The position numbers were made by a program, and so were the translations under genes. The notes below the pieces were generated by a model that was given only the letters and a program-made list of their open reading frames with translations, was not told where the DNA came from and did not search any database. Shown here piece after piece: positions 1,499 to 19,038 of a stretch of 20,000 nucleotides of DNA. The DNA is from an uncultured virus (IMG/VR IMGVR_UViG_3300017747_003095) (lineage: Duplodnaviria; Heunggongvirae; Uroviricota; Caudoviricetes). Positions within the stretch are counted from its first letter, which is position 1. Each line of letters starts with the position of its first letter. Location: the IMG/VR virus record IMGVR_UViG_3300017747_003095. One strand, given 5' to 3'.

Positions 1499-4400
1499 AT
1501 GGACGAAAGAGCAATTGACGATTTATTTAATCATGCTAGGTCTTTAGGATATAAAGACTCTAGAGGCAACTTCCTTAATCTGATTTATACAGATCAGAGG
1601 GCGTTTAATGACATGTTCTCTTACGCTAAGTCTAAGGGATTTAATAAGAACGAGGATGATTTTTCGATTCTAATAGGAAAGAAACAAGGCTCGGGAAAAG
1701 CAGCCCCTGGAAGCGGAGCTGGGCCTTCTGGGGGATTAAGATTACCATCGAATCTAAATAAGCAGCAGGTAAAAAGCTTTCTGGGTAGGTATGGCGCATC
1801 TTTTACAGATGATCAATACGACCAGATAGCTAGTAGGGTGAAAGGTAAGTCGATGGAAGAGGCGATGCAAATCGCTAGAGAGATCACTACTCCGACACCA
1901 CAACCTGTACGGATGTCATCTCTTGATGCTGGAAGGCAAATGCTTGCATCCGCAGCAGAGCAAAGGACAGGCCTTGCTGAACAAGTACAGCAAGAAGAGC
2001 CGTCAACAAGTGGCTATCTTTCACCAGAGCAACTCCGACGCGCCGAAATGGAAGATGCTAGAATACCATCATCCACGCTGCCTACGCAAGGGCAGCTAAG
2101 GGCTGATTTCGCAACGCAATTTAGAAAAGAAGGAGAAGCAAATGCTGCTGATCTGGTTTCTAATTGGGACTCGGAAGGAAAGAAAAAAATGCTCGCAATC
2201 TATGCCGAAGAGGCTATGGAAAACGATAGCGACGAGCTAGACTTCGGCCCTTTTGGAACCGTTAAGATGGGCGAAACGCCAGAAGAGGTTCAAAGAAACT
2301 TAGATCAGCTTATAAGCATCCCGCAACTAGGGACTCTAAAGGCCGAATATGGATTTAGTACAAAACAAATTTATGATAAACTAAAGTCTGACCTTGGCTA
2401 TGAAAATGATAAGAAGTTTGAAGAAACCTTGCTTAAGTATTTTAAGTCAAACGAAGGTCTTAAATACGTAGTTGACGATAGTAAGCAAAAGCTAAGCATA
2501 TATAATCAACTGTACGAAGAGGCCCTGCAAAACCCAAACACACCCCAAGAGGATCTTGATGGCTTAAAGCAAATGATTAATAAAGAGCTCAAGATACAGG
2601 GCATGGGTGAGATTATAGATCAAGCTCAATATAATAGATTATCAATTGGTGAAAAGGCGCCAATAGCCTTGGCGTATGGAGGCAGCACACTTAGGTCACT
2701 TGCAAATTCGCTAGAGCTATCTCTTACAGAATTTACTGTTGGAGTTATGGAAGTCGTGTACGAGCCATTCCTAGCAGATGAACATCAAGGCATGGTTAGA
2801 GACCTTTTGATGTATCAACCATTGTCGGAAAAAAGAAAAGCTGCAGAAAAAACCGCAGAACTTCCCTATCAAAGCGTATCCTCTCAATCTGTTATAGATG
2901 GTCTCAATATACTTAATTTCACAACAACGGCAACGCAGGTCACTGGCTCTATAGCTGTGACTTACGCTGGAGGATTTATGGGAGGCGCTGCTTTAGTATA
3001 TGGTGACGCTGTAGATGAAGCCTTAAAAGGAGGTTATAGCCGAAACGAAGCTAAGGCTTACGGACTACTTAACGCAGGAATATCTGGATACCTTGAAAAA
3101 ATAGGTCTTAAAGGCATAACAAAAACGATTACCACAGACGCTGAGAGAAGATTAGTATTATCCGCTATAAGATCGGAGTTAAAGAAGGGAACAAGCGTAG
3201 ATAAAGTAGTCTCTATAGTCACAAATAAAATAGCTAATTCTATTGGATCTCTAGTTAAAGGTGGAACTCCAGAAGGCTTTACAGAGTTCGCTCAGACAGG
3301 CCAAGAGCTTCTATTGAAAAAGGCATTCAATAGAATGGTTTTAGATGAAGGAGAGAAGGGGTTTGAAGAACCATCACTAGACGAAGCTTCCAAGATGTTA
3401 GGCGAGGCGTTTGTTGTCGGATTTTTTAGTGGAGGATCCGTCCCGTCTCTTATATCAGCATTTTCAAAAGGAAACACCAAGTATGAAGATGTAGCTAATG
3501 CCGTAGTGGCTGGCAAGAAAAAGGTGTCTGATATCGTAGAGACAACAAAGGGTCTTATATTGTCTGGGAAGGTAAGCGCAGTTGATGGACGTGCATTTAT
3601 TGAAAATCTTAAGATAGCAGAAGCAGCAAAAGCTACGCTACCAACTTATGTGAAAGATAAGCAACAGCGCATCCGTGCCATATCACTTGTTATGGAGCGA
3701 AACAAGCTCACACAAGAAATGAATAGTGCAGATCCAGACCTTCAGGATGGGTATAAGAAAAGGCTAAATGAAATAAAGCAGGAGCTTAAATCTATCGCCG
3801 ACAAGAACTGGGTAGCGCCAACTAATGCATTCACTGCGTCGACATCGCCGGGCTTCTCTGCCGCGATGAGCGCATTGTCACAAGAGCCAGATACCGACAA
3901 GGCTGCAAGGGTTTTCAACAAGACTCTTGGCGTAAACAACGGACTTCTGACAAAGATAACGAAGGCGATGGAAGCTGGGACTGAGATAGCTACTCAATTA
4001 TCTAAAAACGTAGCTGCAGATCTTGAGATGTTTGTTGAAAAGTTGTCTAGCATGGACAACAAGACCCCTGCAATGCAGGAGGCGATAAAGTCAGCTACAG
4101 ACATCATCCAGAAGTTAAATGATTATGGCAACAAGCGAGATTCCGTGCCAAGTGAAGCAGGTGTAAGCCTGAATATGGATGAAATCATTGGAAGAATTGC
4201 CGCTGGCGCTGAAGCCGGAGACATGGACTTCATGGAAAATGTTCCAGAAGAAACATTAGATCAAGTCGCTACCACTCTTTCAGGAATAATGTCTGGTGCG
4301 GATGTGTCAGAGGAGGATGCAGGAGCTGCCGCAGATTTTCTATACGGCAGATATAAGCAGCTTACGGACCTAAAGGCAAAGATCAGTAAGAAAATAGAAA

Positions 4401-7400
4401 CAGAAAAGGATGCTACCAAAAAGACTAGGCTAGAAAAATCTTTATCTGCTATCAACGAGGCTCAGTCCAAGCTTGACCAGGACATAAGTGTCACTGTTAA
4501 GTACCAACAAGAGAAAGCCCTCCGTGATGAAGCTGCAGGTACAAGAAAGCAGGTGCCACTAGGAGAACCCCAAGCAGAGCGAAAGAGCGAGAAAGAAAGC
4601 GAGAAAGAGCTCCCGGGCAAGGTATCGCAAGAGTACAGTCCTGAAAACATGGACGCGATACAAGAGGAGTTCGAAGCTGAAAACGGTCGACTAGATCCGC
4701 TTATCATACGAGCAATCAACTCAGTAAACAAGCTACTTTCTAAGATAGCTCCTAACGTAAAGATATACGTACACACCTCTGTTGATGATTACGTTAAGAC
4801 GCTCGCAGAAGAAGGTCTAAGACCTGCTGATGTCGCTGGGGCTTCTAGGACCTACGGTAAGGTCGTTCAGGACGAAAATAAACGTATACAGTCGCTTCAT
4901 ATAAACCTTCAGCTTATAAACGACTCAGCTAATGCTGAAGAAGGCGTTAGAGGCATATACCACGAGGCTACTCACGTAATACTTGATGTATTCTTTAGGG
5001 CTAATCCAAAGATGATCGCTGATATGATCGACTCTATCAAGTCGTTTGTACCTAAGGGAGTATCTGAGCAATTGGATGAGTTTCTTGAAGAGTACGTGAA
5101 TGAAACTGACGAAATAAACGCCGAGGAGTACATATCCGAGTTGGTTGATATTCTCGCCAGAACAGAGAGTCAGCTTGATAAACCGACCATATCGAAGATA
5201 ATCGGTGCAATAAACGACGTTATACGCCGTGCTGCACGAGCCTTAAATATACAGGACCCAGAAAGGTTCCTTATCAAGAATGATCGCACCGACTTTATTG
5301 ACTTCTTAAACTCATTAGCTACCGCTACAACTAGTGGTCTTGAGTCGGATATTAAAAACAAAGAAAGACTACAGAAAAAGTATGCCGTTCAAAAGCAAAC
5401 AGCAGGTAAAGTACCTGTACAGCCAAGAGCCAGAGGTGGCCAAGAGGTGGCGGAAGGAGAACCCGAAGCAGAACCTGAAAACATTGCCGAAGAAGGCGAA
5501 ACCCAAGAGCGGACCAGCAAGTCAAGTAAAAAACGTAAGAAGAAAAAAGAAGTAGGAACAGAATTCTCTGATGCATCAAGTCCTCAGTTTAGTCTTAATT
5601 TGAATAAAAACCTTAGCGAGGACCAACAGAACTCCGTAGGGCAAATATTCGATCAGGTACTTAGTAATGATGATGCGACATTTAGTGAGACTGTAAATAT
5701 AGATGGATCTATTGGCAAAGACGTTCCTAAGCAGAAAATAGAAATAAGCGAATCTGACAACAGACCTGAAGCTGATTTTATGAGAAGGCTTAGGATTCCG
5801 CTTGATTTTATACTTGGGAAGTCTGTAGGATTAGGCATGTCTGACACTCTAACTACTGGCGAAAGAAATGTAGAGGTGCTTGATCTTAAAACAAATAAGA
5901 AGAGCAAGCAAAAAGTTAGGGACGAAGGTGGAATCGGATATCCATTTAAATCTCTTATGGACTTGCTTAATGGCAAGATCAAAAAAGGAGAAAAGATTTT
6001 CGGCTGGGCTTCGGTGAGTAAAGGCGCTGGAACAGGAATGATCACGGCTGCAAAAAAAGCATCAAAAATATCAGGCAGGGAATTAAAGGACATATACATA
6101 AGTAATCTAGGTCTTAATAAAGAGCAAATAAGTAGACTAGAAGATGCTATTCCAGACAATAAACAATATGGAATAGTTGCCATATATAAAATGGGTGCAG
6201 ATGGTATATATAGCAATGAAGCATATTCGAGAGAGGCCTTTAGACAGATTGAAACTCTGCTAGATCAGGATGAAAAGAATCAATTTTTTGTCCTAGCAAA
6301 GCAGCGTCTTAATGATTTAAAGTGGGAAAATAAATCAAGCTTTATTGGTTCAATTAATGCAGCCAATTCGTTTATAGAACTTGAGAATATTCTTCATGGA
6401 AGCGAGTCTAAAATGCCATTAAAGGCTAAGGCTAGTATAATGAAGAAAGTTTTTCTGTCATCAGAAGAAACGGAATCAAAAGGTAAATCGGGCAATAAAT
6501 TAGGTGAGCTATTAAAGAGTAAAGGAATTTCTATAGAAAGCGTAGCTAGAGCTATAGAAGAACCTGTTATGTCTGACCTTAGTAAGGGTCAGCCAGTGAT
6601 ACTTGTCGCTATAGATGGTAGTTCCAAAACAATAGAGGACAAGCTTCGGGAAAGACATAAGAACTACCCTTTTGGTGTAGAAGGATTTCCTATTGGAGTA
6701 TTTGAAGAAACAACTCAAATGCATCAGTTATCAACTGTTTTAATGGATGCGTTTGTCAAGTCATCTACAGTTATAGTTGATGAAAACGCTAAGTTTACAG
6801 ACCCTGCTAAACCAGGAGCTAAAGCTGAAGAAGCACGTGTCAGTATATATCAAGATTCTGAAGGTGATTTCCGTGCCGATAAAGGAAAGGGTGGAGATAA
6901 AGAAAGAATAAAAGACAGCAATGGAGATCCTGTAAAAGCTAAAACAAAGGATCTATTATTAAGCAAACTCAAGAAGCTAGGGTACGTCATTAGTAAAAGC
7001 ATAGCCCAGACAAGATATACTCAGGTTATTAATGGAAGTACATTTGGGGATGTAATGCAAAAGCTTAAGATTGGATTTACATCAATACTAGAAAGTCCAC
7101 AATTAACAGCTCAGCAGAAACTAGTAAAATATTTACAGTTAGCATTCCCTGGTATTGTTGTAGAAATGGACTCAGTAGAGTACGATAAAATACAGCAAGG
7201 CTTCGTAGATCAAAAGCTAATAAATAAAGACGGTAAGGTATATGGATTTGTAAAAGAAGGACGGGTGTATCTTAACCCTACTTACTTAAATAACAATACG
7301 CCAATACATGAATTTGGTCACGTATGGAATTTCGTGGCTAAGAATTTCAGACCAGAAATATATTCAAAAGGTGTTAGTCTAGTAGAGGGAAGTGAATATC

Positions 7401-10400
7401 AAGATTCTGTACTTCAAGATGTTAAGTATAGAAAATTGATAGAAGCAGAATTTGGAAGAAAGGCTCTCATTAAAGACAAGAAAACAGGTAAGTATGTTAT
7501 AAATAAGCAATTTGACAGGGCTAATGAAGTTGCTGATTCAGTTGCTGACGAAGCCTTGGCTAAGGCGATAGGCGATAAAGGAGAGTTGTTTGTTAACGAA
7601 GCACAAAAGCGCGATTTTAAAGACTGGCTTAATACGCTATACAAGGCAATAAAGAAGGTTATCGGATTTGGAGACATGACCGAGGACCAGTTCCAGAATT
7701 TAACATTAGATCAATTCGTTGACTCGGCTCTTAAAGAGATTCTAGGTGGCCAGGAAATAACCAAGGTAACTAGTAGTGAATTGGCTTCTGTGGGAAAAAC
7801 TTCAGCGAAGTTCCTGATTGCCGGGGAGAATGCTAATCTAGAGCAGAATGTATTAGGCAATTTGCGTGTTGCTAACGAAATGGAGGCAAGCAATCAAGAC
7901 GCTAAAACCATTCGCCTTGCAACGGGATGGGAAAGAGGTGCTGATGATAAATGGAGATACGAGGTTCAAGACAATATTCCTTTCTTAAAGGATACTGTTA
8001 AGCAGATGAAAGAGTTTTTATCTGAAAATGATGCTCAAAATACAAGCCAGAAGGCAAATTATTTTCTTCCAAAAGAGCTGTTAAAGCTTTATCCTGAATT
8101 GAATGATGTGACCATAGTCTTCAACGATAAATTCAATGACGATGAAGCTTCATACAATCCACGCACCAAAACTATTGAAGTAAACGTAGGCGTATATCCT
8201 AAGAATACAGTATCTGCATTGCTGCACGAGATACAGCATGTAATACAAGATATAGAGGGCTTCGCTAAGGGAGGTAATGTTGAGGAATTTTCTGACTTTA
8301 GAAACGAGCAAATTATTAATCAAGTTTCGTTTGAAAAAGAACAGCTAGAGAGGCAATATAAAAAACAGCCTTTATCAAGAGATATTATACTAGAGTTTGA
8401 TAACTACATAAATCAGAAAGATGGTATTACTAAAATGTATAATGAATTAAGTGATAAATACGACATTTCAGTAAAGTCAGTAAGAGATGCCGCTAATTAC
8501 CTATATGAATTGATAGGAGATGATCCTACGATGGATAATTATGTTAACAAGATTGCCTTTTTTAATGACGTAATATCTAGTAAAAACCCATTTAGGCAAT
8601 ATGAGAAATTAGCTGGAGAGGTAGAAGCTCGGAATGTACAGGCTCGTATGGAGATGACTCCCGAGCAACGTAGGGCAACTACTCTGCAGGAAACCGAAAG
8701 CGTACCAAGAGAAGAACAAACAGTAAGGGGTGTACTAACCTCAAAGTCATCGAAGGTAAGTTCTGCATTGGCAAATGTTAAGAATACGGCTAAGGCCCTG
8801 GAGGGGAAAAATACATTCGACCAGCAAGATGAAAAAGCAGAAGTTATAGTTGGTAAAGAAAAAGACAGATGGGGTCGTTCTCAAGTTTGGAGAGAAAGAA
8901 TAGAAAACGCAGGAGATATACTTAGGGAATTGTCAGGTAGAGGCAACAATCCTGATGTTAAATATTTACAAGAAAAAATAAATAAGATAAAGAATTGGAT
9001 TTTAGATGGAAGCGGATTTAGCGAACTACCAAAAAGCATTAAAACCTTAAAGGATGTTGATGAATCAAATGTTAGATTTTCTTCCGCTGTTGATGGGAAG
9101 AAATATTTAGATAAGTTTCATAATGATGTCTTACAAGAAACTATTGACGCTTATAAAGGTATTGTTGTAAAAACAGAAGAAGAGCAAGTTGTAAAAGATT
9201 TTATATTAACCTTACTACAAGGAGATAAATCATCTATATCTTCTAGCTTAAAAGAAGTTGAGGATATTGTTGGTAGAATAAAAAAACAAGGGGAATTAAA
9301 ATCAACTCCATTAAATGTTTCTGAAGCCTATCACGAAGCCAAGGCGGACGGAAGTAACCCTGAGTTAGTTGAAGCGGTAGAGGCGTTGCTTGGGGATCAG
9401 GAAGTAAAACCTGAATTAACCTCAAAATCTTCGAAGGCAAGTTCTGGACTAACATCAAAGTCATCAAAGTCCAAAGGCCCGCTAGGCTACGATCCGAACC
9501 AAGCGGCCGACAGAGGCACTAAACAAGATCGTGACCTACAGCAGAATATCTACGACTTGGCTCTTAGTATATGGGACTCGACAAAGGATCTCATGGATAT
9601 GACTGCTGATATCTACGTAGCAGTTAGCGACGAGTTAGACACGCCTCTTAATGCTGTGCACATAGCCGAGTTGATAAAAGACCTTCGCATTGGCAACAGA
9701 CCGGAATATACTAAAACACCAGAAGGCAAGTACAAGCGCAACAAAACGAAGCTAAATGTCAGCTCTGTAATGGACAGCGCTCTTGTGGCATTGAGCGGCC
9801 TTGTTACAAACAGAAGAGTGGATAAGGGTATTATCGCTAGTCTTATAAACTCCCTTAAAGGTGGACCTCAATATACCGTGGAAAATCAGATAGATGTAGA
9901 TGCTATAGCCGATACTCTTTTTGACATATTCGGTGACTCTGCTAATATTGCGACCTTACAGGAGCTTTACAAAATCGCAGAACTGGCTAAGGGTGGTTTG
10001 AGAACTACGATGTTTGCCAGAATCGCTAATAATTCATGGAACAAAGCAAGAGAGTCTAAGGATCAACAGGAGAAGCTGGCGTATAGAGATCTTGGGAATA
10101 TGGCCTTGAATCAATTAGCTCAAGAAGCTACTGAGTCAGGAAGGTTTAATGCTATGATCTACAGGATCCAGAAGCTCAACCCAGAATTCCTTGCCTCTTT
10201 CGAGAAGTCAAGGGTTAGGCGAGAGACTGAATCGCAAATGAGAGGGGCGGGCCAGAAGAAGTCAGATGTGGATTCTGTCACAACAGAACTCAACACGGCT
10301 CAGGAGCAGGCAGCTGAACAGGCTGTTAACTCACCGTCTGTACAAGCGGCTATCAATACCGCTACTGGCGTCCCTCCGGGACCTAGTACACCTCCTCCTG

Positions 10401-13400
10401 CGCCAAAACCAAAACCAGCCGGACCAAAACCAGGCGGACCAAAACCTCCTGCGCCAAAGCCAACAGGCCCTCCTGTTAGTGAGGCTGCAAGTAAAGCGGC
10501 TGATGCTAGGATCAAAGACCTGAAAGGGAAGCTAAAGAACCTCTTCTCTGGTAAAACTTCGAAGTCAGCGAGAGCAATCCCTGCAGGTATGAATCCAGAA
10601 ATTCTGGATATCATCACAGAGCTTGCTAGGAATTACATCGTAAAAGGATTCACGGATAGGACGGCGTTGATTTCAAAGATCAATGGTGACATAACCGCTG
10701 CAGGTGGGTCTGTGACAATGGACTACTTCACAGAGATGTGGAACGAGGTTCAGGTTGAGGCTGTTCAGCAAAGGAACACTATAGCTGCAAATTCTCTAGC
10801 GAACAGAATCGTCGGCAAGGTAAAGAGTACAATTAGGGAGTCTACCAAGACGTTTGATCCAATCGATGAGTTAATAACAAATCTTGTTAATAAGGCGACA
10901 GAAGATGTTAAAACGCCAAAGAAAGCCAAGGAGTCTCCACTAGAAATAATCAAGAGACTGGTAGTAGAATACGATACAGCCAAAAAGATCTGGGAGGCTT
11001 CAAAAGCAAATGTCAAAGCGAAGATTGACCTACTAGACCCTGCTAAGTTCACTCCTGCAGAGAAGCAGGCTATGAAAGACAAGCTGAATTCTTTCTTTGA
11101 GAATGATCTAAGCTACTTCGAGATCAAGAAAACACCTACAGCATCTCCTAATGCGACAGTCAGAAATGTTATCAAGCAGGAGATGAAAGAGAAGAAGCTC
11201 AAGATTGAGGAGATTTTGCTGATGGCTACTTCGAAGCAGGCTAAAACCAAGGAGGAGTTCATTCAGAATATTGTAGATGATATTGTTAACTCAACTGGCA
11301 TATCCTATAGCGATGCAATCAGAATCGCCGAGGACTTCGCTAACAAATACGATCAAATTGTAAGCAAGAAGCAGGAGTCTATCCTTAAGAGGTTTTCTAA
11401 CTCTATCAGGGTAAGGAACATTAAGAAAAAGTCTCAGGGCCAACGTGCTTTTGAGATGATTAAGTACGGCGTAATAGATCCATCCATTAAGATCCATGAT
11501 AAAAATGGAGATATTATAGACTCGGCAATGCTTTTAGCTGAGTTATTCGGCGTTCCATATATTGATGAGGAGACGAGAAATGAGCTAGACAAGTTTGCAG
11601 AGGAGATCGCAGCTGCTCCTGAGGGCGTTATCCGTCAGCAGGTTATCAATGAAATGATGATGTTTATGAAGATGCATCAGTTCATACAGTTAGGGTCGCT
11701 AGGAACTCGTATTATGACTCAGTTCTACGCCAACATACTTACCAGCGGTGATACGCTCTTGAAGGCCTTTAACTCGAACATTGTAATGAATCCGTTTGAG
11801 TTTCTGACCATAGCCACAAGGGCTGCAATAAAGCGTGACTTTGCTTTAATACCTCTCCTTACAAAAGGTTACTATCAGAAGAAAGGCGTAGGCTCAATAA
11901 AAGAGTTAAAAGCTGATCGACCGCTGAGGGATATTGATGGGTATGTAATCAACCAAGGCGAGACATACTACCTATTCAGTGACAAAAATATAATGAGCCA
12001 AGCGAATCCAAGGGCAGCTGCGCTTAGCGGTCACTACCAAGGGCTTCTTCAATACAGCACCTCAATTAACCAAGCTAGAGCGGTGCTAGGAGGTCTTATC
12101 GAGCATGAAAACTATACCGACAATATCACAGGTGCTGTTTATGCAAAATACGGAAGAACAAAAGCAGGTAGGGCATGGGGTAGGTATGTGACAGCCGCTC
12201 AGAAGGGTCTTGGGGCAATAGACGTACTATTGACAGCAGGTGCTACCGGAGCTAGATACAGTGACTTATTGTATGACGCAATCAGGTTCTATGCTAAGTC
12301 AAAAGGAGAGAAAATAAAGGGCTCTGAGATTGTTAAGATCATAAACCTTTTGCAGGGATACTCTCCAATGGTCCAGTTAGATGCTTACAATCAAGCAATA
12401 GCCGAGATGCAGGGCCTTGAAAACGGCCGTCTTGATCTATCTGATAAAAAGAAAAAGACATTACTTCTACTAAGGGTTGAGGATATTGTCAGACAGAAAA
12501 TGTCAGACAGATACCAGCAAGCTGTTAATGCAAGTCCTTGGTTAGCGGGACTTAGTCAGCAAGAGATCGCCGACCTGCTCGACGGAGCAAAAGACATTAC
12601 AACCAAGATCGGATTAATGGGCACTCCTCCTGGGACAGGCGGGGTATTGTCTCACTATTTAGCAATCCCTGGAAGAGCCTTTAGGTTCTCTAATATGCAA
12701 GTGGGCGCATTCGTAAAAGCGCCTATTAACGGCGCTATGTTCCTTGTGCAAGGAAACACGCCGCTTGCAGCTATTATGACAGGCGTAAGGCTACTGAAGA
12801 GTCAACGGGGCTTTGGTTTAGGATCTAATGAGTTCTTTAAGAAGGAAGGTATCAGGACTAGCATGTACGGAAAGACCAGATATTCTAGACAATTGGGTAA
12901 AAATGCATCGTTAATATGGAACCTAGAAAAGGAGGATTTGCTAGTTAAGTTTGCCTTGATACAAACTGCAGCTATATCATTGACTTTTATGTCGACTAAT
13001 GCAGTCATCGTAGGTCTTGCGTCTATGTTTGATGATGACGACGAGGGCAGAAAAAAGAGAGATCTACTGCTTAAGGATGGACTTGAATACTTGAAAAAGA
13101 TTCCACAAAATGAAAGGGAGTTAATGTTCTTTGGGGACATATTATCCCCTGATAAAAAGAAAAGAGAAGGTATATGGAAGCAGCTTCCGTTCTATACTAC
13201 TGGTTCAATGTATGGATACCAGGCCGGAGGTTACGGAAAGATGCAAAGTCTTAAGGCTAGATACGGAATTGAGCCACATACCGCCTATTCTTATGGAGTA
13301 AAATTATTTACATACAAGGACAATCCTTTACTGGGGGCCTTCTTTATGGAGATGGCTGCGTCAACGGATGCGATACTATTCAACGAGTCCGCAAATCTTG

Positions 13401-14311
13401 AGGACAATCAGTTAGGTTTGGTTCTGATGTCAACTTGGGCTCAAATGAACTTATTTAGAGATCAAGCTAGTTTAAAAAGTATCTCTGAAATCACAGAGGC
13501 ATTTGCAGGGCAAAGGGCTTACGAAGGTCTAGATAGTCCGCTTCAAAGGCTTGAGATGTACGGAGGTAAATCAATTGGAAATCTTGTATCAAACCTAACT
13601 ATGCCAGCCGCGATGAAGAACATTAACCAAGACGTAATGGCGATGCTAGGTCAGCATATGGATGACCCAAAGACCTTTAAGGAGTTTGTTGTATATAGAT
13701 GGCCGATCATCGGAAGTGTTGTTATAGAAGGCGAAAAGACAGGTCCGTTTGGATATCCAGTCAAGACTCAACCTAAGCGAGTGTTCCCAATCATAGCTGA
13801 GCCATTTAAGTTGCCTTTGATGCTAGACGGAAGTATAGACTTGCCTACTGTAGATCAGCTGCTTTCGACAGAGGATGCTAAGTACACCGCCTTGTTCGTA
13901 AGAAACAATAACGATAAATTTCTCAACCCTGAGATATCTGGGTATTACAAGGCGGATAAATACGGTGACTTCGAAAGGAAGACCTTTTCTTTGGAACAGA
14001 GGAAGAAAATCAAAGAAGAGTACAAGCTCTTAATGAGAGAATTCGCTGAACAGAATATTAACGTAGTTCAATCTCCTAAAGAATTTAATACTAATCTAAA
14101 GCTATTCTTAAGTTTATACGGAGCAGAAATGGGCAAAAATACAGTTACTACTGTAGGTTATAAGCGATACATCATCAACAAGGTAATGGGTGCCGAGGCG
14201 AAAGATATACTTCTCGATGAAGCGGATGGCTTTTACAATATGGGCAAAGATGAGTTGACTCTTGACAAGATCAAAAAGACCGAAGAAGGATTTGTGCCGC
14301 TAGAAAGGTAG
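1499..14311 (+). CDS. Giant (4270 aa) large polyvalent-type virion/ejection protein with three HExxH metallopeptidase-like modules and an LPD23-like domain
   Basis: Uninterrupted 12.8-kb ORF, ATG after A-rich aacaaatcaac, TAG stop. Motifs: HEATH (4961), TPIHEFGH (H at 7307), LLHEIQH (H at 8225) ... AGEVEARNVQ (G at 8615), and IRLATGWERGADDKWRYE (LPD23-like, ~7910-7963). Architecture fits the polyvalent proteins described by Iyer et al. 2017. Confidence 0.85.
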   Translation: MDERAIDDLFNHARSLGYKDSRGNFLNLIYTDQRAFNDMFSYAKSKGFNKNEDDFSILIGKKQGSGKAAPGSGAGPSGGLRLPSNLNKQQVKSFLGRYGASFTDDQYDQIASRVKGKSMEEAMQIAREITTPTPQPVRMSSLDAGRQMLASAAEQRTGLAEQVQQEEPSTSGYLSPEQLRRAEMEDARIPSSTLPTQGQLRADFATQFRKEGEANAADLVSNWDSEGKKKMLAIYAEEAMENDSDELDFGPFGTVKMGETPEEVQRNLDQLISIPQLGTLKAEYGFSTKQIYDKLKSDLGYENDKKFEETLLKYFKSNEGLKYVVDDSKQKLSIYNQLYEEALQNPNTPQEDLDGLKQMINKELKIQGMGEIIDQAQYNRLSIGEKAPIALAYGGSTLRSLANSLELSLTEFTVGVMEVVYEPFLADEHQGMVRDLLMYQPLSEKRKAAEKTAELPYQSVSSQSVIDGLNILNFTTTATQVTGSIAVTYAGGFMGGAALVYGDAVDEALKGGYSRNEAKAYGLLNAGISGYLEKIGLKGITKTITTDAERRLVLSAIRSELKKGTSVDKVVSIVTNKIANSIGSLVKGGTPEGFTEFAQTGQELLLKKAFNRMVLDEGEKGFEEPSLDEASKMLGEAFVVGFFSGGSVPSLISAFSKGNTKYEDVANAVVAGKKKVSDIVETTKGLILSGKVSAVDGRAFIENLKIAEAAKATLPTYVKDKQQRIRAISLVMERNKLTQEMNSADPDLQDGYKKRLNEIKQELKSIADKNWVAPTNAFTASTSPGFSAAMSALSQEPDTDKAARVFNKTLGVNNGLLTKITKAMEAGTEIATQLSKNVAADLEMFVEKLSSMDNKTPAMQEAIKSATDIIQKLNDYGNKRDSVPSEAGVSLNMDEIIGRIAAGAEAGDMDFMENVPEETLDQVATTLSGIMSGADVSEEDAGAAADFLYGRYKQLTDLKAKISKKIETEKDATKKTRLEKSLSAINEAQSKLDQDISVTVKYQQEKALRDEAAGTRKQVPLGEPQAERKSEKESEKELPGKVSQEYSPENMDAIQEEFEAENGRLDPLIIRAINSVNKLLSKIAPNVKIYVHTSVDDYVKTLAEEGLRPADVAGASRTYGKVVQDENKRIQSLHINLQLINDSANAEEGVRGIYHEATHVILDVFFRANPKMIADMIDSIKSFVPKGVSEQLDEFLEEYVNETDEINAEEYISELVDILARTESQLDKPTISKIIGAINDVIRRAARALNIQDPERFLIKNDRTDFIDFLNSLATATTSGLESDIKNKERLQKKYAVQKQTAGKVPVQPRARGGQEVAEGEPEAEPENIAEEGETQERTSKSSKKRKKKKEVGTEFSDASSPQFSLNLNKNLSEDQQNSVGQIFDQVLSNDDATFSETVNIDGSIGKDVPKQKIEISESDNRPEADFMRRLRIPLDFILGKSVGLGMSDTLTTGERNVEVLDLKTNKKSKQKVRDEGGIGYPFKSLMDLLNGKIKKGEKIFGWASVSKGAGTGMITAAKKASKISGRELKDIYISNLGLNKEQISRLEDAIPDNKQYGIVAIYKMGADGIYSNEAYSREAFRQIETLLDQDEKNQFFVLAKQRLNDLKWENKSSFIGSINAANSFIELENILHGSESKMPLKAKASIMKKVFLSSEETESKGKSGNKLGELLKSKGISIESVARAIEEPVMSDLSKGQPVILVAIDGSSKTIEDKLRERHKNYPFGVEGFPIGVFEETTQMHQLSTVLMDAFVKSSTVIVDENAKFTDPAKPGAKAEEARVSIYQDSEGDFRADKGKGGDKERIKDSNGDPVKAKTKDLLLSKLKKLGYVISKSIAQTRYTQVINGSTFGDVMQKLKIGFTSILESPQLTAQQKLVKYLQLAFPGIVVEMDSVEYDKIQQGFVDQKLINKDGKVYGFVKEGRVYLNPTYLNNNTPIHEFGHVWNFVAKNFRPEIYSKGVSLVEGSEYQDSVLQDVKYRKLIEAEFGRKALIKDKKTGKYVINKQFDRANEVADSVADEALAKAIGDKGELFVNEAQKRDFKDWLNTLYKAIKKVIGFGDMTEDQFQNLTLDQFVDSALKEILGGQEITKVTSSELASVGKTSAKFLIAGENANLEQNVLGNLRVANEMEASNQDAKTIRLATGWERGADDKWRYEVQDNIPFLKDTVKQMKEFLSENDAQNTSQKANYFLPKELLKLYPELNDVTIVFNDKFNDDEASYNPRTKTIEVNVGVYPKNTVSALLHEIQHVIQDIEGFAKGGNVEEFSDFRNEQIINQVSFEKEQLERQYKKQPLSRDIILEFDNYINQKDGITKMYNELSDKYDISVKSVRDAANYLYELIGDDPTMDNYVNKIAFFNDVISSKNPFRQYEKLAGEVEARNVQARMEMTPEQRRATTLQETESVPREEQTVRGVLTSKSSKVSSALANVKNTAKALEGKNTFDQQDEKAEVIVGKEKDRWGRSQVWRERIENAGDILRELSGRGNNPDVKYLQEKINKIKNWILDGSGFSELPKSIKTLKDVDESNVRFSSAVDGKKYLDKFHNDVLQETIDAYKGIVVKTEEEQVVKDFILTLLQGDKSSISSSLKEVEDIVGRIKKQGELKSTPLNVSEAYHEAKADGSNPELVEAVEALLGDQEVKPELTSKSSKASSGLTSKSSKSKGPLGYDPNQAADRGTKQDRDLQQNIYDLALSIWDSTKDLMDMTADIYVAVSDELDTPLNAVHIAELIKDLRIGNRPEYTKTPEGKYKRNKTKLNVSSVMDSALVALSGLVTNRRVDKGIIASLINSLKGGPQYTVENQIDVDAIADTLFDIFGDSANIATLQELYKIAELAKGGLRTTMFARIANNSWNKARESKDQQEKLAYRDLGNMALNQLAQEATESGRFNAMIYRIQKLNPEFLASFEKSRVRRETESQMRGAGQKKSDVDSVTTELNTAQEQAAEQAVNSPSVQAAINTATGVPPGPSTPPPAPKPKPAGPKPGGPKPPAPKPTGPPVSEAASKAADARIKDLKGKLKNLFSGKTSKSARAIPAGMNPEILDIITELARNYIVKGFTDRTALISKINGDITAAGGSVTMDYFTEMWNEVQVEAVQQRNTIAANSLANRIVGKVKSTIRESTKTFDPIDELITNLVNKATEDVKTPKKAKESPLEIIKRLVVEYDTAKKIWEASKANVKAKIDLLDPAKFTPAEKQAMKDKLNSFFENDLSYFEIKKTPTASPNATVRNVIKQEMKEKKLKIEEILLMATSKQAKTKEEFIQNIVDDIVNSTGISYSDAIRIAEDFANKYDQIVSKKQESILKRFSNSIRVRNIKKKSQGQRAFEMIKYGVIDPSIKIHDKNGDIIDSAMLLAELFGVPYIDEETRNELDKFAEEIAAAPEGVIRQQVINEMMMFMKMHQFIQLGSLGTRIMTQFYANILTSGDTLLKAFNSNIVMNPFEFLTIATRAAIKRDFALIPLLTKGYYQKKGVGSIKELKADRPLRDIDGYVINQGETYYLFSDKNIMSQANPRAAALSGHYQGLLQYSTSINQARAVLGGLIEHENYTDNITGAVYAKYGRTKAGRAWGRYVTAAQKGLGAIDVLLTAGATGARYSDLLYDAIRFYAKSKGEKIKGSEIVKIINLLQGYSPMVQLDAYNQAIAEMQGLENGRLDLSDKKKKTLLLLRVEDIVRQKMSDRYQQAVNASPWLAGLSQQEIADLLDGAKDITTKIGLMGTPPGTGGVLSHYLAIPGRAFRFSNMQVGAFVKAPINGAMFLVQGNTPLAAIMTGVRLLKSQRGFGLGSNEFFKKEGIRTSMYGKTRYSRQLGKNASLIWNLEKEDLLVKFALIQTAAISLTFMSTNAVIVGLASMFDDDDEGRKKRDLLLKDGLEYLKKIPQNERELMFFGDILSPDKKKREGIWKQLPFYTTGSMYGYQAGGYGKMQSLKARYGIEPHTAYSYGVKLFTYKDNPLLGAFFMEMAASTDAILFNESANLEDNQLGLVLMSTWAQMNLFRDQASLKSISEITEAFAGQRAYEGLDSPLQRLEMYGGKSIGNLVSNLTMPAAMKNINQDVMAMLGQHMDDPKTFKEFVVYRWPIIGSVVIEGEKTGPFGYPVKTQPKRVFPIIAEPFKLPLMLDGSIDLPTVDQLLSTEDAKYTALFVRNNNDKFLNPEISGYYKADKYGDFERKTFSLEQRKKIKEEYKLLMREFAEQNINVVQSPKEFNTNLKLFLSLYGAEMGKNTVTTVGYKRYIINKVMGAEAKDILLDEADGFYNMGKDELTLDKIKKTEEGFVPLER
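1502..1678 (+). repeat. Two-copy 30-aa N-terminal repeat of the giant protein
   Basis: DERAIDDLFNHARSLGYKDSRGNFLNLI aligns with DQRAFNDMFSYAKSKGFNKNEDDFSILI at an exact 30-residue period. Confidence 0.75.
4700..5330 (+). other. Zincin-like metallopeptidase module 1 within the giant protein
   Basis: SLHINL strand, then GIYHEATHVIL (HExxH at 4961-4975), then NAEEYISEL (candidate third ligand Glu) about 50 aa later. Boundaries approximate. Confidence 0.6.
5382..5555 (+). CDS. Small basic 57-aa protein nested in the +1 frame of the giant gene (candidate overprinted gene)
   Basis: ATG at 5382 after A-rich acagaaaaagt (A at -3), TAG at 5553-5555. Translation MPFKSKQQVKYLYSQEPEVAKRWRKENPKQNLKTLPKKAKPKSGPASQVKNVRRKKK resembles, from my recall, small stand-alone phage proteins of the form MPFKSxxQx(R/K)YxYxxxPE(I/V)AKRW...LP. 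The ORF track starts it earlier, at 5334. Confidence 0.6.
   Translation: MPFKSKQQVKYLYSQEPEVAKRWRKENPKQNLKTLPKKAKPKSGPASQVKNVRRKKK
7110..7760 (+). other. Zincin-like metallopeptidase module 2 within the giant protein (polyvalent-protein MPTase type)
   Basis: VYGFVKEGRVYLNP...NTPIHEFGHVW (HExxH at 7307-7321), then DEALAKAIGDKG and FKDWLNTLYKAIKKVIG. Boundaries approximate. Confidence 0.7.
7811..8730 (+). other. LPD23-like domain followed by metallopeptidase module 3
   Basis: FLIAGENA...ANEMEA...TIRLATGWERGADDKWRYEV...LLKLYPEL...ALLHEIQHVIQDIEGFAKGGN...YEKLAGEVEARNVQARM, matching my recall of the LPD23 + HExxH/GEVEAR arrangement in polyvalent proteins. Confidence 0.75.
8736..9446 (+). repeat. 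~30-nt imperfect direct repeat pair (8736-8765 and 9417-9446), both encoding (L)TSKSSK(V/A)SS
   Basis: taacctcaaagtcatcgaaggtaagttctg vs taacctcaaaatcttcgaaggcaagttctg, 27/30 identical. A third, shorter copy follows immediately (ctaacatcaaagtcatcaaag, 9449-9469). Confidence 0.85.
10373..10474 (+). repeat. Pro/Lys/Gly-rich low-complexity linker with short internal repeats
   Basis: PPGPSTPPPAPKPKPAGPKPGGPKPPAPKPTGPP; nucleotide repeats cctcctgcgccaaa x2 and ggaccaaaacc x2. Confidence 0.85.
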
Positions 14312-14361: not shown

Positions 14362-14943
14362 TTGGCACTTAAGATCAACTTCTCCTACAGCCAGAGTGCA
14401 GACGCCAAGACGCTGTATATCTACGACACGACAGGCGTTTATGATGCGGTTATGAACGATACAGGGTGGGGAGGTCCGAACCCGGCGATAGGGTCTGCGA
14501 CCTCTGACCAAGTTTCAATTCAGATGATTGGGTCAAGTGAGGTTTATACGGTACCGATGTACCCCACACTTCCGAACACAAACAGCATTCCGTTTTCTAT
14601 AGACTCCTCGATGCTAGGGCTAGGTCTTGACGCTCAGATTCCTGACGGTCAGTATATCATTACTAGGCAGGTGGTTGTTTCTGGTACCAATTACCAAGCG
14701 ACAAAAAGAGTATTCTTTATTAGCATCCTAAAATGCTGTGCCGATACAATGCTAGACTCCGATACCAATACTGGACGTTGTAGTTGTGGGTGTAGTGGTA
14801 ATGGATTTACAAATGCTACGATCTTGCAATACTCTATTTTCACTCTAAAGAAAGCCTTTAAGTCATTAAAATTTGAGAAGGCTGATCAAATATTCAGATA
14901 CGCACAAGGTTTGTGCAAAGAAAAAAACTGTAAAAACTGTTAA
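14362..14943 (+). CDS. Hypothetical virion structural protein (193 aa), beta-rich N-domain plus Cys-rich C-terminus
   Basis: TTG start after aaaaacgtatagca; LYIYDTTGVY...TGWGGPN...IPDGQYII; C-terminal KCC...CSCGC...CKEKNCKNC; TAA 2 nt before the next ATG. Confidence 0.75.
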   Translation: MALKINFSYSQSADAKTLYIYDTTGVYDAVMNDTGWGGPNPAIGSATSDQVSIQMIGSSEVYTVPMYPTLPNTNSIPFSIDSSMLGLGLDAQIPDGQYIITRQVVVSGTNYQATKRVFFISILKCCADTMLDSDTNTGRCSCGCSGNGFTNATILQYSIFTLKKAFKSLKFEKADQIFRYAQGLCKEKNCKNC

Positions 14944-14945
14944 TC

Positions 14946-15926
14946 ATGGTTGACTTAGGCTGCGGATGTGATTCAATAGAGCTGCCATTTGGCCCTAGCG
15001 GCAATGACGGTAGAAGCGTCTTTAATGTAACGACAGGTCCGTTTGTTCAACCACCTGTCGGGTCTGATGAAACCATTGTAGTTAATGATACGGGCTCGTT
15101 TACAAACCAATGGGCGGCGAGAAAAAATCTGGTATCAGTTTTTGATCCTACAGGAAACGGAGGTTTTTATGAGGTTGTTTCTACTACAGGGACAAATCAA
15201 ATAACAATAAAGAACCTAGGATATGCAGGATCTGCTCCCGCTTTGACACCTATTTTGGCCGGAGCAAAGGTAGTTCCGTCTGGGGTTCAAGGCGCGGCGG
15301 GTCCGCCTGGAGCTGCTGGAGGAGCAGGTCCTGTAGGTCCTGCAGGAACAGCATCTACACTAGTTAGGACTTATGTAGACACCTCGATAAGGGCCGTTCC
15401 TAACACATCTGGGTTTGGTTTGATACCTACCCAAACATTTTCCGCGCCTATTCTTTGTCCTCAAAACGGTGATGCTGGAAGGATTAAAGGGCATTTTGTG
15501 CTAAGGGGCTCTGGGTCATTTAGCCTAGGCAGGCTGATTGATAACATAGATTTCTTTATCGGTAAAACAGGCGTTGCTTTTAGTGCAATCGTTCCGGTCC
15601 CGAGTGCCGAAACAAGCTATGACAGCCAGCTTCAGATTAGAGAAATAGATCTAAAAGATATTTCCAACTACACTTTTGTTTCGTTCGAGATAACAATCAA
15701 GAGGATATCATCAACATCTAGTCTGATACTTGTTCAGTGGTGGTTAAACAACGTGCAAACGCCTGGGTTGCAGGGTTTTTATGTTGGATCTTCTTTAACA
15801 ACTGGTTCTGTAGATTTCAACACTGGATCTTCGATTGATTTTGCGGTTAGATCTTCCGCGACATACACGGCAGGTGGTATAGATGTATCTCTAGCTAGTT
15901 TAACAGTTGAAAAAATAATCCAATAA
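14946..15926 (+). CDS. Collagen-repeat-containing virion fibre/spike-like protein (326 aa)
   Basis: Eight Gly-X-Y triplets (GVQGAAGPPGAAGGAGPVGPAGTA) between two beta-rich domains; N-terminal GCGCD; closely spaced with both neighbours. Confidence 0.75.
   Translation: MVDLGCGCDSIELPFGPSGNDGRSVFNVTTGPFVQPPVGSDETIVVNDTGSFTNQWAARKNLVSVFDPTGNGGFYEVVSTTGTNQITIKNLGYAGSAPALTPILAGAKVVPSGVQGAAGPPGAAGGAGPVGPAGTASTLVRTYVDTSIRAVPNTSGFGLIPTQTFSAPILCPQNGDAGRIKGHFVLRGSGSFSLGRLIDNIDFFIGKTGVAFSAIVPVPSAETSYDSQLQIREIDLKDISNYTFVSFEITIKRISSTSSLILVQWWLNNVQTPGLQGFYVGSSLTTGSVDFNTGSSIDFAVRSSATYTAGGIDVSLASLTVEKIIQ
15282..15353 (+). repeat. Collagen-like (Gly-X-Y)8 repeat
   Basis: Direct translation; locally GC-rich. 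Confidence 0.9.
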
Positions 15927-15927
15927 A

Positions 15928-17106: not shown

Positions 17107-17109
17107 TAG

Positions 17110-17493
17110 ATGCAGCTCTACACTAGCGATGATGTTTTAAAGAGGGCTTGGATAGCAGATTCCAAGCAGGCGGATCTAATGATCGACGCTATCGCTGCAT
17201 CGTATAGTGGCAATGTAGATCAATTTAATTGCATCTTTAGTAGTGTAGCAAACCTGCACTGGCTTAGCGAAGCGTTGAAGTGCTATAGAATTATCGGTGA
17301 TTTTGACATAAATGACTTCGATAACAATGACTTTAATGTGATTGGTTTGAATTGTTTGACTCAAGAAAACCTTCAAGGGATAATTCTTAAAATAGAAAAC
17401 ATTGTAGGGCTTTTGTGTGGATGCGATCCAGAGGCTTTGATAAATGATTCTCTTCCAGATATAATCAAGTACACAGACGAAAAATACTACTAG
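17110..17493 (+). CDS. Small acidic Cys-containing hypothetical phage protein (127 aa)
   Basis: TGA-TAG-ATG junction; five Cys including NCLTQE...LLCGC; internal DFDIN-DFDNN-DFN repeat. Confidence 0.75.
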   Translation: MQLYTSDDVLKRAWIADSKQADLMIDAIAASYSGNVDQFNCIFSSVANLHWLSEALKCYRIIGDFDINDFDNNDFNVIGLNCLTQENLQGIILKIENIVGLLCGCDPEALINDSLPDIIKYTDEKYY

Positions 17494-17498
17494 TTACC

Positions 17499-19034: not shown

Positions 19035-19038
19035 CATA

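Follow-up and report, generated by a model that had tools for sequence, protein, structure and literature searches.

What role does a short peptide play when it recurs, almost letter for letter, along a single giant protein of an uncultured phage? A preliminary description of this locus had noted that the hexapeptide TSKSSK punctuates the protein at the boundaries of its modules. We find that TSKSSK is one dialect, that of the phage encoding the protein studied here (P0001), of a junction peptide of the form T-(S)-[KR]-[AS]-[SGAR]-[KR] that marks every module boundary in the protein family. A co-evolving protease, be it an embedded zincin or a maturation protease, may recognize the peptide and cut the protein there; such cutting is hypothetical, and we put the chances of this reading at about even.

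The giant protein and its modules

The protein is encoded in a 20-kb stretch of DNA (the window) of a 68,957-bp contig. All of the coordinates and codons claimed for TSKSSK and TSKSAR were reproduced in a single open reading frame, which is made up as follows:

1499..14311, + strand: giant open reading frame of 4,270 aa (P0001), a polyvalent-type phage protein with a Pfam LPD23 domain
1499..5512, + strand: conserved N region, aa 1-1338, segment class B (BLASTP, segment clustering)
5513..5530, + strand: copy 1 of the peptide (JN), TSKSSK, aa 1339-1344, T1339 invariant; coil, pLDDT about 30
5531..8737, + strand: cargo cassette A, aa 1345-2413, with parts common to P0012-P0014, P0016 and P0002; it contains HEFGH at aa 1937, LPD23 at aa 2108-2159 and HEIQH at aa 2243
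about 7793-7813, + strand: internal degenerate site GKTSAKF in cassette A, near aa 2099-2105
8738..8755, + strand: copy 2, TSKSSK, aa 2414-2419; coil, pLDDT about 23
8756..9418, + strand: cargo cassette B, aa 2420-2640, with its core at aa 2438-2605
9320-9391, + strand: adaptor of cassette B, SEAYHEAKADGSNPELVEAVEALL, aa 2608-2631, which recurs in other proteins
9419..9436, + strand: copy 3, TSKSSK, aa 2641-2646; coil, pLDDT about 26
9452..9469, + strand: copy 4 (JC), TSKSSK, aa 2652-2657; coil, pLDDT about 31
9470..10555, + strand: conserved C1, aa 2658-3019, segment class C (segment clustering)
10556..10573, + strand: copy 5 (J5), TSKSAR, aa 3020-3025, within the conserved C region; loop flanked by confidently predicted helices
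10574..14308, + strand: conserved C2, aa 3026-4270, segment class A, mostly helical

Homologues of 2,500-4,200 aa are found on contigs of 48-70 kb. The family, with proteins of 3,000-4,300 aa, has a common layout in which an N region with an HExxH zincin at its end is followed by one to three swappable cargo cassettes and then by the conserved regions C1 and C2. Cargo in the family includes ART, GNAT, DUF7178 and LPD23/zincin domains. The N region of P0001 is 37-64% identical to those of P0002-P0011, with BLASTP alignments that stop at query positions 1315-1385, and copy 4 of the peptide directly precedes the conserved C region (YDPN..AADRG). Cassette B is 80% identical to part of P0015 over query positions 2416-2651, and 10 free-standing proteins of 177-197 aa match its residues 2438-2598/2607 and end there. 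C1 is closed by a Pro-rich linker (about nt 10367-10477), with Pro-rich tandem repeats that constitute families D2 and D9, and C2 has a hydrophobic stretch near aa 3820-3845. The preliminary description had counted three peptidases in the protein. Three HExxH motifs are indeed present; the support from domain families consists of one LPD23 match (E 6.7e-13) and one sub-threshold DUF6782 match, and the count is otherwise a reading of the sequence.

Coincidence of the peptide with module boundaries

Homology breakpoints and Pfam domain edges both coincide with the sites, in agreement with the proposal that the peptide sits at module boundaries. Among 16 family proteins, which are related, fall into about five lineages and are not independent for the boundary and dialect statistics, 55% of 626 internal BLASTP endpoints were within 30 aa of a site, compared with 6.3% of random positions (maximum of 9.1% in 1,000 draws). 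The segments between sites occur in varied combinations, namely D-F, E-F, J-F, J-I, E-I and H-D. Sites bracket the ART-PolyVal domain of P0056 (2146-2287, between sites 2122 and 2300), the ART domain of P0024 (478-611, between 454 and 625) and the GNAT domain of P0027 (2262-2323, between 2154 and 2375), and in domain searches of P0001 and family members no Pfam envelope overlapped a site.

The sites had also been assigned to linkers, and in two AlphaFold2 models all five are in coil with low pLDDT. Since the first of these models was poor overall (mean pLDDT 50), we take this result as supporting evidence only. At J5 the pLDDT is 57 versus 80-91 in the neighboring helices of the AlphaFold2 prediction, and residues K3022, A3024, R3025, P3028 and A3029 are invariant. 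The hydrophobic fraction is 0.22 in the 20 aa on either side of the sites versus 0.30 in the whole proteins.

Given that the linkers are rich in Lys, Ser, Glu and Pro, it might be argued that low-complexity sequence rich in Lys, Ser and Thr yields the same hexamer by chance. We reject this explanation as practically impossible. No hexamer reached four copies in 500 global shuffles or in 500 shuffles within 30-aa blocks (the top copy numbers in the two sets were 2 and 3), which bears out the statement that the repetition is far beyond chance, and relatives with different linker composition keep the motif at the same joints. The family pattern has three to six matches in each of P0001-P0011, against 0.12-0.23 expected. 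The motif is specific to the scaffold: P0012-P0021, which are other giants with common cassettes, have one match in 10 proteins, and among 32 further large proteins with cassette B or its adaptor, two have one match each and none has two. Within the window, the sites are absent from the six open reading frames downstream of the giant gene, and the partial open reading frame upstream has one loose match, EAKASKAM.

Lineage dialects of the peptide

One condition under which the preliminary description would have fallen, an absence of repeated boundary motifs from homologues, does not hold. All 15 of the related giants carry their own version at the same joints, with TKASK, TKAGR, TKSSR and TRARR as the dialects of relatives, and there are about 55 junction sites across the 15 relatives and five in P0001. 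Core identity is 4.32/5 across different joints within a protein versus 3.53/5 at the same joint between proteins, and the within-protein value was reached by none of 5,000 label permutations. J5 has no variable cassette beside it and still follows the dialect, reading TSKSAR with the extra Ser in P0001, TKSSR in P0053 and TRARR or TRSRR in the TRARR clade. An internal control is provided by a look-alike of the peptide within C2:

12158..12172, + strand: look-alike TKAGR, aa 3554-3558, inside conserved C2

The look-alike reads yekhakT[KR]AG[KR].wgkyv in seven relatives, whatever their junction dialect.

Codon usage and DNA ancestry of the copies

An alternative explanation for the uniformity of the copies is that they are a legacy of recombination, in which the junction was duplicated with each cassette insertion and the copies are held uniform by gene conversion, within a harmless linker that has no reader. 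Two features of the DNA are pertinent to this explanation:

8722..8765, + strand: left arm of a 44-nt imperfect direct repeat flanking cassette B (family D1)
5382..5477, + strand: conserved tail YAVQKQ..VPVQ..EGEPEAEP, immediately before junction 1, with Y1295-Q1300 invariant

The right arms of the repeat are at 9403-9446 (80% alike over the 44 nt) and 9436-9479 (61%). Thus, copies 2, 3 and 4 share DNA ancestry and are not fully independent, and the repetition is partly duplication; gene conversion could be an added source of uniformity among copies within one protein. Recombination as the origin of the pattern also fits with the assortment of cassettes at the sites, with the longer unit GKPGIETKASK that is repeated at two or three joints in the TKASK lineage, and with the conserved DNA island just upstream of JN (the 5382..5477 tail).

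The codons, however, are at odds with a passive legacy. Selection at the level of the peptide had been proposed, and all 20 of the core codon differences among the four exact copies are synonymous, with two to five of the six core codons differing in each of the six pairings, whereas the 10 flanking codons have 5-10 non-synonymous differences. Copy 1 has AGC/AGT codons for Ser where the other copies have TCN, and copies 1 and 5 have only 9-13 of 18 core bases in common with the rest. A recombination legacy also fails to account for J5, which is embedded in conserved sequence with no adjoining cassette and follows the dialect down to the extra Ser, or for P0015, which has cassette B and no motif on its N side. 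We therefore consider this explanation unlikely, though it deserves to be kept in mind.

The suggestion that the copies double as microhomology for module exchange fared poorly. Except for the 44-nt repeat that flanks cassette B, the copies have no above-chance DNA similarity outside the core of 6-7 residues, and the site in the conserved C region co-varies with the others even though no cassette exchange happens there.

Possible readers of the peptide

We infer that a specific reader of the peptide exists and, one step further, that this reader may be a protease and that cleavage may occur. A sequence-specific protease would read the peptide and cut the giant into the N region, cassette A, cassette B, C1 and C2, either while still inside the capsid or once the protein has been ejected into the host. 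The candidate proteases are the conserved zincin that is embedded a short way before the first site and the head-maturation protease of the phage. Protease and sites would co-evolve, which would result in a single dialect at all sites of each lineage. Cassettes would be swapped at linkers mainly because linkers tolerate breakpoints, and an incoming cassette would have to end up flanked by the resident dialect. The ART-PolyVal and GNAT domains of the relatives, together with the virion-type neighborhood of the gene, suggest that the whole may form an injected effector system. A bolder version is a portable cleavage code, with one protease in or alongside the giant, a five-residue peptide (TKASK, TKAGR, TKSSR, TRARR and TSKSSK being its dialects), protease and sites that are re-tuned in each lineage, and cassettes between the sites that are released as anti-host effectors. 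We offer this version tentatively and think it somewhat more apt to fail than to hold.

The features of the embedded zincin are:

4619..5335, + strand: zincin-like domain with HExxH, aa 1041-1279; AlphaFold2 pLDDT 70-92
4961-4975, + strand: HEATH, aa 1155-1159, with H1155, E1156 and H1159 invariant

In 15 of the 15 proteins that span this region, a conserved HExxH zincin precedes the first site by 60-190 aa. In P0001, E1209, E1210 and E1214 are conserved downstream of the HExxH, and the domain is predicted to fold as strands followed by helices. VIA-align matches to zincins (3e11, 1yqy, 6fpc and 6mdx) had Z values of 5.0-5.3, which are inside the noise range, Foldseek found no match for the domain, and AlphaFold2 did not put the tail with site 1 into the zincin cleft. 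The dialects track clades in the zincin tree and the C-region tree alike, and so the zincin is not singled out as the reader; among the sequence, tree and model comparisons, nothing ties it to the motif.

Family proteins yielded nothing in favor of cutting, whether as a cleavage product, a naturally split gene or an N-terminus. Two candidates were rejected: P0022, taken as a stand-alone C region, starts at an internal Met of a 99.8% identical cluster mate of 3,942 aa, and P0057 and P0025, taken as a natural split, are broken about 50 aa past a site.

A different kind of reader would be a docking partner, in which case the peptide would never be cut. Basic linker peptides would all attach to a single partner (for example a chaperone, the portal, the packaged DNA or the inner wall of the capsid), whose surface co-evolves with the motif, and the giant would be held for packaging and ordered ejection. 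Docking would explain the single dialect per protein, the co-variation of J5 and the peptide-level selection without cleavage, and the linkers are strongly basic, as exemplified by TSKSSKKRKKKK at JN. A purely electrostatic contact with DNA, though, would preserve composition and not five or six exact residues with an invariant Thr. In addition, the small residues at the center of the motif (A/S, then S/G/A) would be more typical of a scissile site, and the placement of a site at either end of every small enzyme cassette fits release better than anchoring. On balance docking seems unlikely to us.

Comparison with known systems

The giant family is a variant of the polyvalent-protein theme, one that gives exact sites. 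Polyvalent proteins are encoded by phages, prophages or conjugative elements and unite a number of unrelated enzymatic or effector domains in a single, very large polypeptide, and both features are found in the giant. Further likenesses are the putative zincin-like hub with its HExxH, the LPD domains, and the ART-PolyVal and GNAT cargo of the giant's relatives. In polyvalent proteins the zincin-like domain consists of a three-stranded sheet, the HExxH helix and a Glu helix downstream of it. Release of domains by embedded zincins was predicted in the available text of the study of polyvalent proteins (Iyer, Burroughs, Anand, de Souza, Aravind 2017, PMC5512222), the main text of which names no cleavage or junction motif and does not use 'linker' or 'boundar*'. 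Relative to the proteins described in that text, the giant family adds a fixed scaffold of N-zincin, C1 and C2 and a short site with lineage dialects. The proposal of 2017 that phages have their giant polyvalent proteins split into separate enzymes has so far had no defined sites; the giant family supplies exact residues, natural dialect variants as specificity controls and a conserved candidate protease by the first site.

In RNA-virus polyproteins, a protease and its short cleavage sites are encoded in one open reading frame, and the sites change along with the protease from lineage to lineage, as is proposed for the giant. The proteases and the host domain of life differ from those of the giant, whose cleavage is hypothetical. 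An analogy between polyvalent proteins and RNA-virus polyproteins is drawn in the available text of PMC5512222.

MARTX toxins (multifunctional autoprocessing RTX toxins; reviewed in PMC3153235) are the closest parallel in architectural logic. The giant has no match to a cysteine protease domain or RTX repeats (Pfam and NCBIfam, E up to 0.01 / 0.1), and with no sequence relationship the likeness to MARTX is one of analogy only. MARTX toxins are cut in the linkers between effectors. They depend on RTX repeats and on a protease domain of the cysteine type, and bacteria secrete them to act on eukaryotic cells, whereas the giant has a zincin as its protease candidate, a phage as its carrier and bacteria as its target.

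Prohead protease motifs of the T4 and phiKZ type end in Glu, unlike the site in the giant, which is basic with a center of small residues. In a parallel to the cleavage reading, large-phage head and ejection proteins of the SPN3US gp245 type have several sites with a short motif that is read by one morphogenetic protease, and the available text of PMC10052503 describes proteins cut by prohead proteases in large phages as packaged and later ejected.

N4 virion RNA polymerase gp50 and phi24B gp47 resemble the giant as giants of podophage virions (2,800-3,500 aa), with folded units on long linkers and an HExxH or MuF-C peptidase domain, according to the accessible descriptions, in which no repeated junction peptide is mentioned for either. 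The N4 protein is reported there to be packaged and ejected uncut despite its HExxH and long linkers, and thus the precedent cuts both ways, lending support to docking as well. The N and C regions of the giant had no tblastn match in 50,697 phage records. The N4 protein has a single-subunit RNA polymerase domain at its center. For the giant, searches of Pfam, PHROG, NCBIfam and PDB gave no RNA polymerase match by sequence, and its center is variable cargo.

If the cleavage reading is true, it would explain how many anti-host enzymes are packaged via one gene and one packaging signal, and why cargo modules are exchanged freely at the joints. The family would then also offer a compact, orthogonal set of protease and sites. 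On the bolder, portable-code version, DNA phages would have in the giant a plug-and-play system for delivering polyproteins, which would be the phage counterpart of MARTX toxins and of RNA-virus polyproteins, and changes in dialect would insulate co-infecting relatives from each other's proteases.

Genomic setting and abundance

The giant family is best explained as belonging to uncultured freshwater phages of about 60-70 kb, with its genes adjoining tail-fiber-like genes. The open reading frames that follow the giant gene are fiber- or spike-like, with matches to phrog_4636 (tail spike, 8.5e-5) and phrog_32934 (5.6e-12), and the nearest Atlas clusters are viral, which serves as a lead only. 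The family appears to be abundant in freshwater metagenomes. The island at 5382..5477 is DNA common to far more abundant relatives: in four freshwater metagenome runs, read depth over it was up to 4,133 versus about 3-30 in the flanks.

The junction peptide in the giant protein

The only giant ORF of the window encodes P0001, a member of the polyvalent-protein class. In P0001 a conserved N region with a putative HExxH zincin is followed by cargo cassettes A and B and the conserved regions C1 and C2. P0001 carries five copies of a short junction peptide, which has the general form T-(S)-[KR]-[AS]-[SGAR]-[KR].

1499..14311, + strand: giant ORF, encoding P0001 (4,270 aa)
aa 1339: TSKSSK, copy 1 (JN)
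aa 2414: TSKSSK, copy 2
aa 2641: TSKSSK, copy 3
aa 2652: TSKSSK, copy 4 (JC)
aa 3020: TSKSAR, copy 5 (J5)

Coordinates and codons of all five copies agree exactly with those in the preliminary description, which had also held that a four-fold hexamer was far beyond chance. The highest hexamer counts in shuffled P0001 were 2 and 3, and four copies were reached in 0/500 global shuffles and in 0/500 shuffles within 30-aa blocks, so a chance origin of the repeated hexamer is excluded. Selection on the peptide, proposed earlier from the codon usage, is likewise upheld. When the four exact copies are compared in pairs (six pairs), 2-5 of the 6 core codons differ and all 20 of these differences are synonymous, while 5-10 of the 10 flanking codons differ non-synonymously. 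The Ser codons are AGC/AGT in copy 1 versus TCN in the other copies. A signal at the DNA or RNA level, such as a promoter or internal start, was rejected since unrelated codons encode the lineage-specific versions (dialects) of the peptide and the P0001 copies differ at silent sites.

One alternative is that the junction peptide is a legacy of recombination. A 44-nt direct repeat surrounds cassette B (8722-8765 versus 9403-9446, 80% identity; third copy at 9436-9479, 61%), and the assumption that the copies are independent consequently fails for copies 2, 3 and 4, which have a common DNA ancestry. Longer repeated units in the lineage with the TKASK dialect fit the same explanation, as does a conserved DNA island that immediately precedes JN. 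A recombination legacy leaves the silent-site divergence of the copies, the AGY/TCN split of the Ser codons and J5 unaccounted for, and we consider it rather unlikely. The 44-nt repeat resembles a junction duplicated on cassette insertion, and the tandem motif pair at 9419/9452 looks like a cassette slot left empty. Elsewhere in the gene, the Pro-rich linker that separates C1 from junction 5 is encoded by 15-nt tandem repeats (10394-10463; PKP/GPKP units).

The DNA island spans 95 nt at the end of the N region (5382-5476, YAVQKQ..VPVQ..EGEPEAEP). In four freshwater metagenome runs its contig depth rose to 4,133 versus ~3-30 elsewhere in the gene; variant letters are numerous in it, and loose ends occur at both flanks. 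The island, at least 85% identical, is common to far more abundant relatives and located at the edge of the variable region. Strains in the four DNA runs were near-identical, so that the lack of cassette-loss joints and of changes at the motif codons carries no information.

Dialects of the junction peptide

Relatives were gathered with a word-indexed search (20 other giants), an exhaustive HMMER search with aa 2640-3839 (33 proteins) and cluster look-ups for full-length mates; a third homologue search added no family members, and the DNA of the relatives had no match in viral, metagenome or genome contig collections. An exact 50-mer of the window likewise gave none among the metagenome and viral contigs. 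BLASTP with the relatives P0002-P0011 showed conservation of the N region (query residue 1 to ~1340) and of the C region (~2640 to 4270) around a variable center. At the matching joints these proteins carry their own repeated version of the peptide, which answers the question of whether homologues have boundary motifs of their own.

Dialects at matching joints
TSKSSK: P0001
TKASK: P0003-5 and P0008-11
(GKK)TKAGR(T): P0002, P0006, P0007
(L)RTKSSRG: P0053
(T)TRARR(T): P0024, P0027, P0056

Matches to the family expression TS?[KR][ASP][SGA][KR] number 3-6 in each of P0001-P0011 versus 0.12-0.23 expected from shuffles. Ten other giants that have the cassettes without the scaffold yielded one match in total, and a single match was seen in two of 32 further large proteins with cassette B or its adaptor, two matches in none. 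Degenerate versions occur at some further joints (TRARA and TRART in P0056, STKGRA in P0011, TQGRA in P0010). Just before LPD23 in cassette A, P0001 has GKTSAKF (aa 2099-2105, window 7793-7813), where P0006 has GKKTKAALV and P0002 GKKIKSGL; GKTSAKF resembles a junction site in decayed or weaker form.

Core identity averages 4.32/5 between different joints within a protein (76 pairs) versus 3.53/5 for the same joint between proteins (205 pairs), and the within-protein value was reached by 0/5,000 label permutations. J5 is the most telling site for one dialect per protein. It lies within conserved sequence, with F3016, G3018, P3028 and A3029 invariant and no adjoining variable cassette, and it is TSKSAR in P0001 (with the extra Ser of the other four copies), TKSSR in P0053, TRARR or TRSRR in the TRARR clade and TKAAR or TKPAR in the TKASK and TKAGR clades. 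A look-alike at aa 3554, in a conserved folded part, reads T[KR]AG[KR] regardless of dialect.

Junction peptides at module boundaries

The BLASTP breakpoints of P0001 coincide with the TSKSSK copies. Matches to the conserved ends stop at query residues 1315-1385 and resume at 2632-2650; P0015 has only residues 2416-2651 in common with P0001 (80% identity), and P0013 and P0014 share residues 1331/1363-2433. Among 626 internal endpoints from 16 family proteins, whose relatedness makes the endpoints non-independent, 55% fall within 30 aa of a site versus 6.3% for random positions (maximum 9.1% in 1,000 draws). When the inter-site segments were clustered, classes D, E, F, H, I and J combined freely, and every break fell at a site. 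Sites also bracket known domains, and in P0001 and the relatives examined none is overlapped by a Pfam envelope.

Cassette orders from segment clustering
B-D-F-C-A
B-E-F
B-J-F
B-J-I
B-E-I-C-A
B-H-D-C-A

Domains (aa) bracketed by sites
P0056: ART-PolyVal 2146-2287, flanking sites 2122 and 2300
P0024: ART-PolyVal 478-611, flanking sites 454 and 625
P0027: GNAT 2262-2323, flanking sites 2154 and 2375

Ten proteins of 177-197 aa occur free-standing and align to cassette B at aa 2438-2598/2607, where they end; the core of cassette B is therefore an autonomous unit.

The preliminary description had placed every copy in a linker, and all five do lie in coil or loop of AlphaFold2 models, one of them poor. 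Site 1 falls within ~120 disordered residues that follow a confident alpha/beta domain (aa 1041-1279, pLDDT 70-92) in the model of aa 1020-1400. In the model of aa 2050-3100, which is poor overall (mean pLDDT 50), sites 2, 3 and 4 are in a long coil (pLDDT 23-31) and site 5 is in a 16-residue loop (pLDDT 57) between helices at 80-91. Within 20 residues of 55 sites, in both directions, the hydrophobic fraction is 0.22 versus 0.30 for whole proteins.

A putative reader of the junction peptide

The conservation pattern points to a sequence-specific reader, a putative partner that would recognize all sites of a protein, because an exact core sits between freely varying flanks, the peptide itself is under selection, a single dialect is used throughout each protein, J5 included, and the motif is absent from other giants with the same cassettes. 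The most economical reader would be a protease, since the sites sit in exposed linkers that flank small enzyme cassettes on both sides, the motif center is small (A/S, then S/G/A) and a conserved HExxH domain lies upstream of the first site. In 15/15 proteins that include the region, this domain precedes the first site by 60-190 aa. Cleavage at the junction peptide, which we propose, stands at roughly even chances; it would split P0001 into aa 1-1338/1344, 1345-2413, 2420-2640, 2658-3019 and 3026-4270. The same reader-type evidence could be accounted for by a docking motif that is left uncut, which we regard as unlikely. Against cleavage, N4 vRNAP is reported to combine an HExxH domain with long linkers and to be ejected whole.

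If the peptide is cut, the embedded zincin is a candidate protease, and the main text of a survey of polyvalent proteins published in 2017 had predicted that embedded zincins carry out processing, with no sites named there (PMC5512222). Three HExxH motifs occur in P0001 (aa 1155, 1937 and 2243), and Pfam searches returned LPD23 (aa 2108-2159, E 6.7e-13), a sub-threshold match to the DUF6782 metallopeptidase and nothing else. PHROGs and NCBIfam searches gave nothing meaningful for the giant protein, and a PDB sequence search gave nothing. Foldseek with the zincin model found no match at E <= 0.001, and fold matches of the domain reached only Z 5.0-5.3, within the noise range. The tail with site 1 is not docked in the zincin in the AlphaFold2 model, and a complex prediction for the zincin domain with the 42-aa JC linker, run with no controls, scored 0.00, which speaks neither for nor against binding. 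The zincin tree follows the dialect classes; the C-region tree follows them too, so co-evolution with the dialect cannot be pinned on the zincin.

The phage maturation protease would be an equally good candidate. Phage prohead proteases share the fold of herpesvirus assemblin, whose scissile bond joins Ala to Ser and is preceded by one variable residue and, before that, a beta-branched or aliphatic one. By analogy, this site may resemble T-K-A-S-K cut between A and S, and we treat the likeness as a lead. Two other modes of cleavage were rejected: a Thr nucleophile acting in self-cleavage would require a folded domain, and the sites sit in disordered linkers, and OmpT-type dibasic cleavage is at odds with a dibasic pair found only in the TRARR dialect.

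Three cases that might have represented split genes or variants were set aside. P0022 (1,615 aa) appeared to be a free C region starting 6 aa past a site and matches the C-terminal part of a 3,942-aa cluster mate at 99.75% identity; it is ambiguous as a split gene because its start is an internal Met of that mate. P0057 plus P0025 correspond to a break of P0056 at aa 1326/1339, which is not at a site, and the ORF of P0024, an apparent zincin-less member, fills its 7,000-bp contig and is hence cut off.

The logic of the P0001 family is closest to that of MARTX toxins and RNA-virus polyproteins, with conserved ends around exchangeable central effectors, a protease embedded in the protein (a candidate here) and short inter-module sites, although none of the domains of those systems is present in P0001. 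In the full-text literature searched and the main text of PMC5512222 we found no account of polyvalent proteins whose junction peptide differs in dialect between lineages, and the strings TSKSSK, ETKASKA and KKTKAGRT gave unrelated matches only in full-text literature.

The adaptor element and neighboring sequences

An adaptor of ~24 aa, SEAYH(K/E)AKADGSNPELV(K/E)AVE..LL, occurs at window 9320-9391 (aa 2608-2631), with a T-K-A-S-K site 8-12 residues after it in the family of P0001. Among the proteins fetched, 49 hold 65 copies (at most 3 per protein, 70-85% identity), after which a variable linker and (K/R)DVESTAKALEG usually come next; a related element, NTAKALEG, lies at ~8786-8809, just after motif 2. 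In P0094 the adaptor brackets ART-PolyVal and ParB_N domains. The adaptor has no Pfam family, and its string is absent from the full-text literature searched; it could serve polyvalent proteins in general as an element at module ends.

Neither megablast with the window nor tblastn with the upstream ORF and the N and C regions matched any GenBank phage. The upstream ORF (window 2-1489, open at its 5' end) has EAKASKAM at residue 26 of the partial protein, in a Lys/Glu-rich helix-like stretch; it fits the family consensus KASKA, not the dialect of P0001, and is probably due to chance. Downstream, a Cys-rich 193-aa ORF with the C-terminal end CKEKNCKNC (14362-14943) precedes four Gly/Ser/Thr-rich, fiber- or spike-like ORFs (14946-19998) with weak matches to phrog_4636 (tail spike) and phrog_32934; none of the ORFs in 14362-19998 carries a junction peptide.

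P0018, a polyvalent protein of 2,953 aa on a 2.7-Mb bacterial contig, shares only the LPD23/zincin cassette with P0001. It has a junction-like repeat of its own, ..FSLNEDNDSEFAKAVD, in four copies (aa 1296-1315, 1893-1907, 2465-2484 and 2878-2896); AKFSLES in P0012 and QFSLNLN just after site 1 in P0001 were noted along with it.
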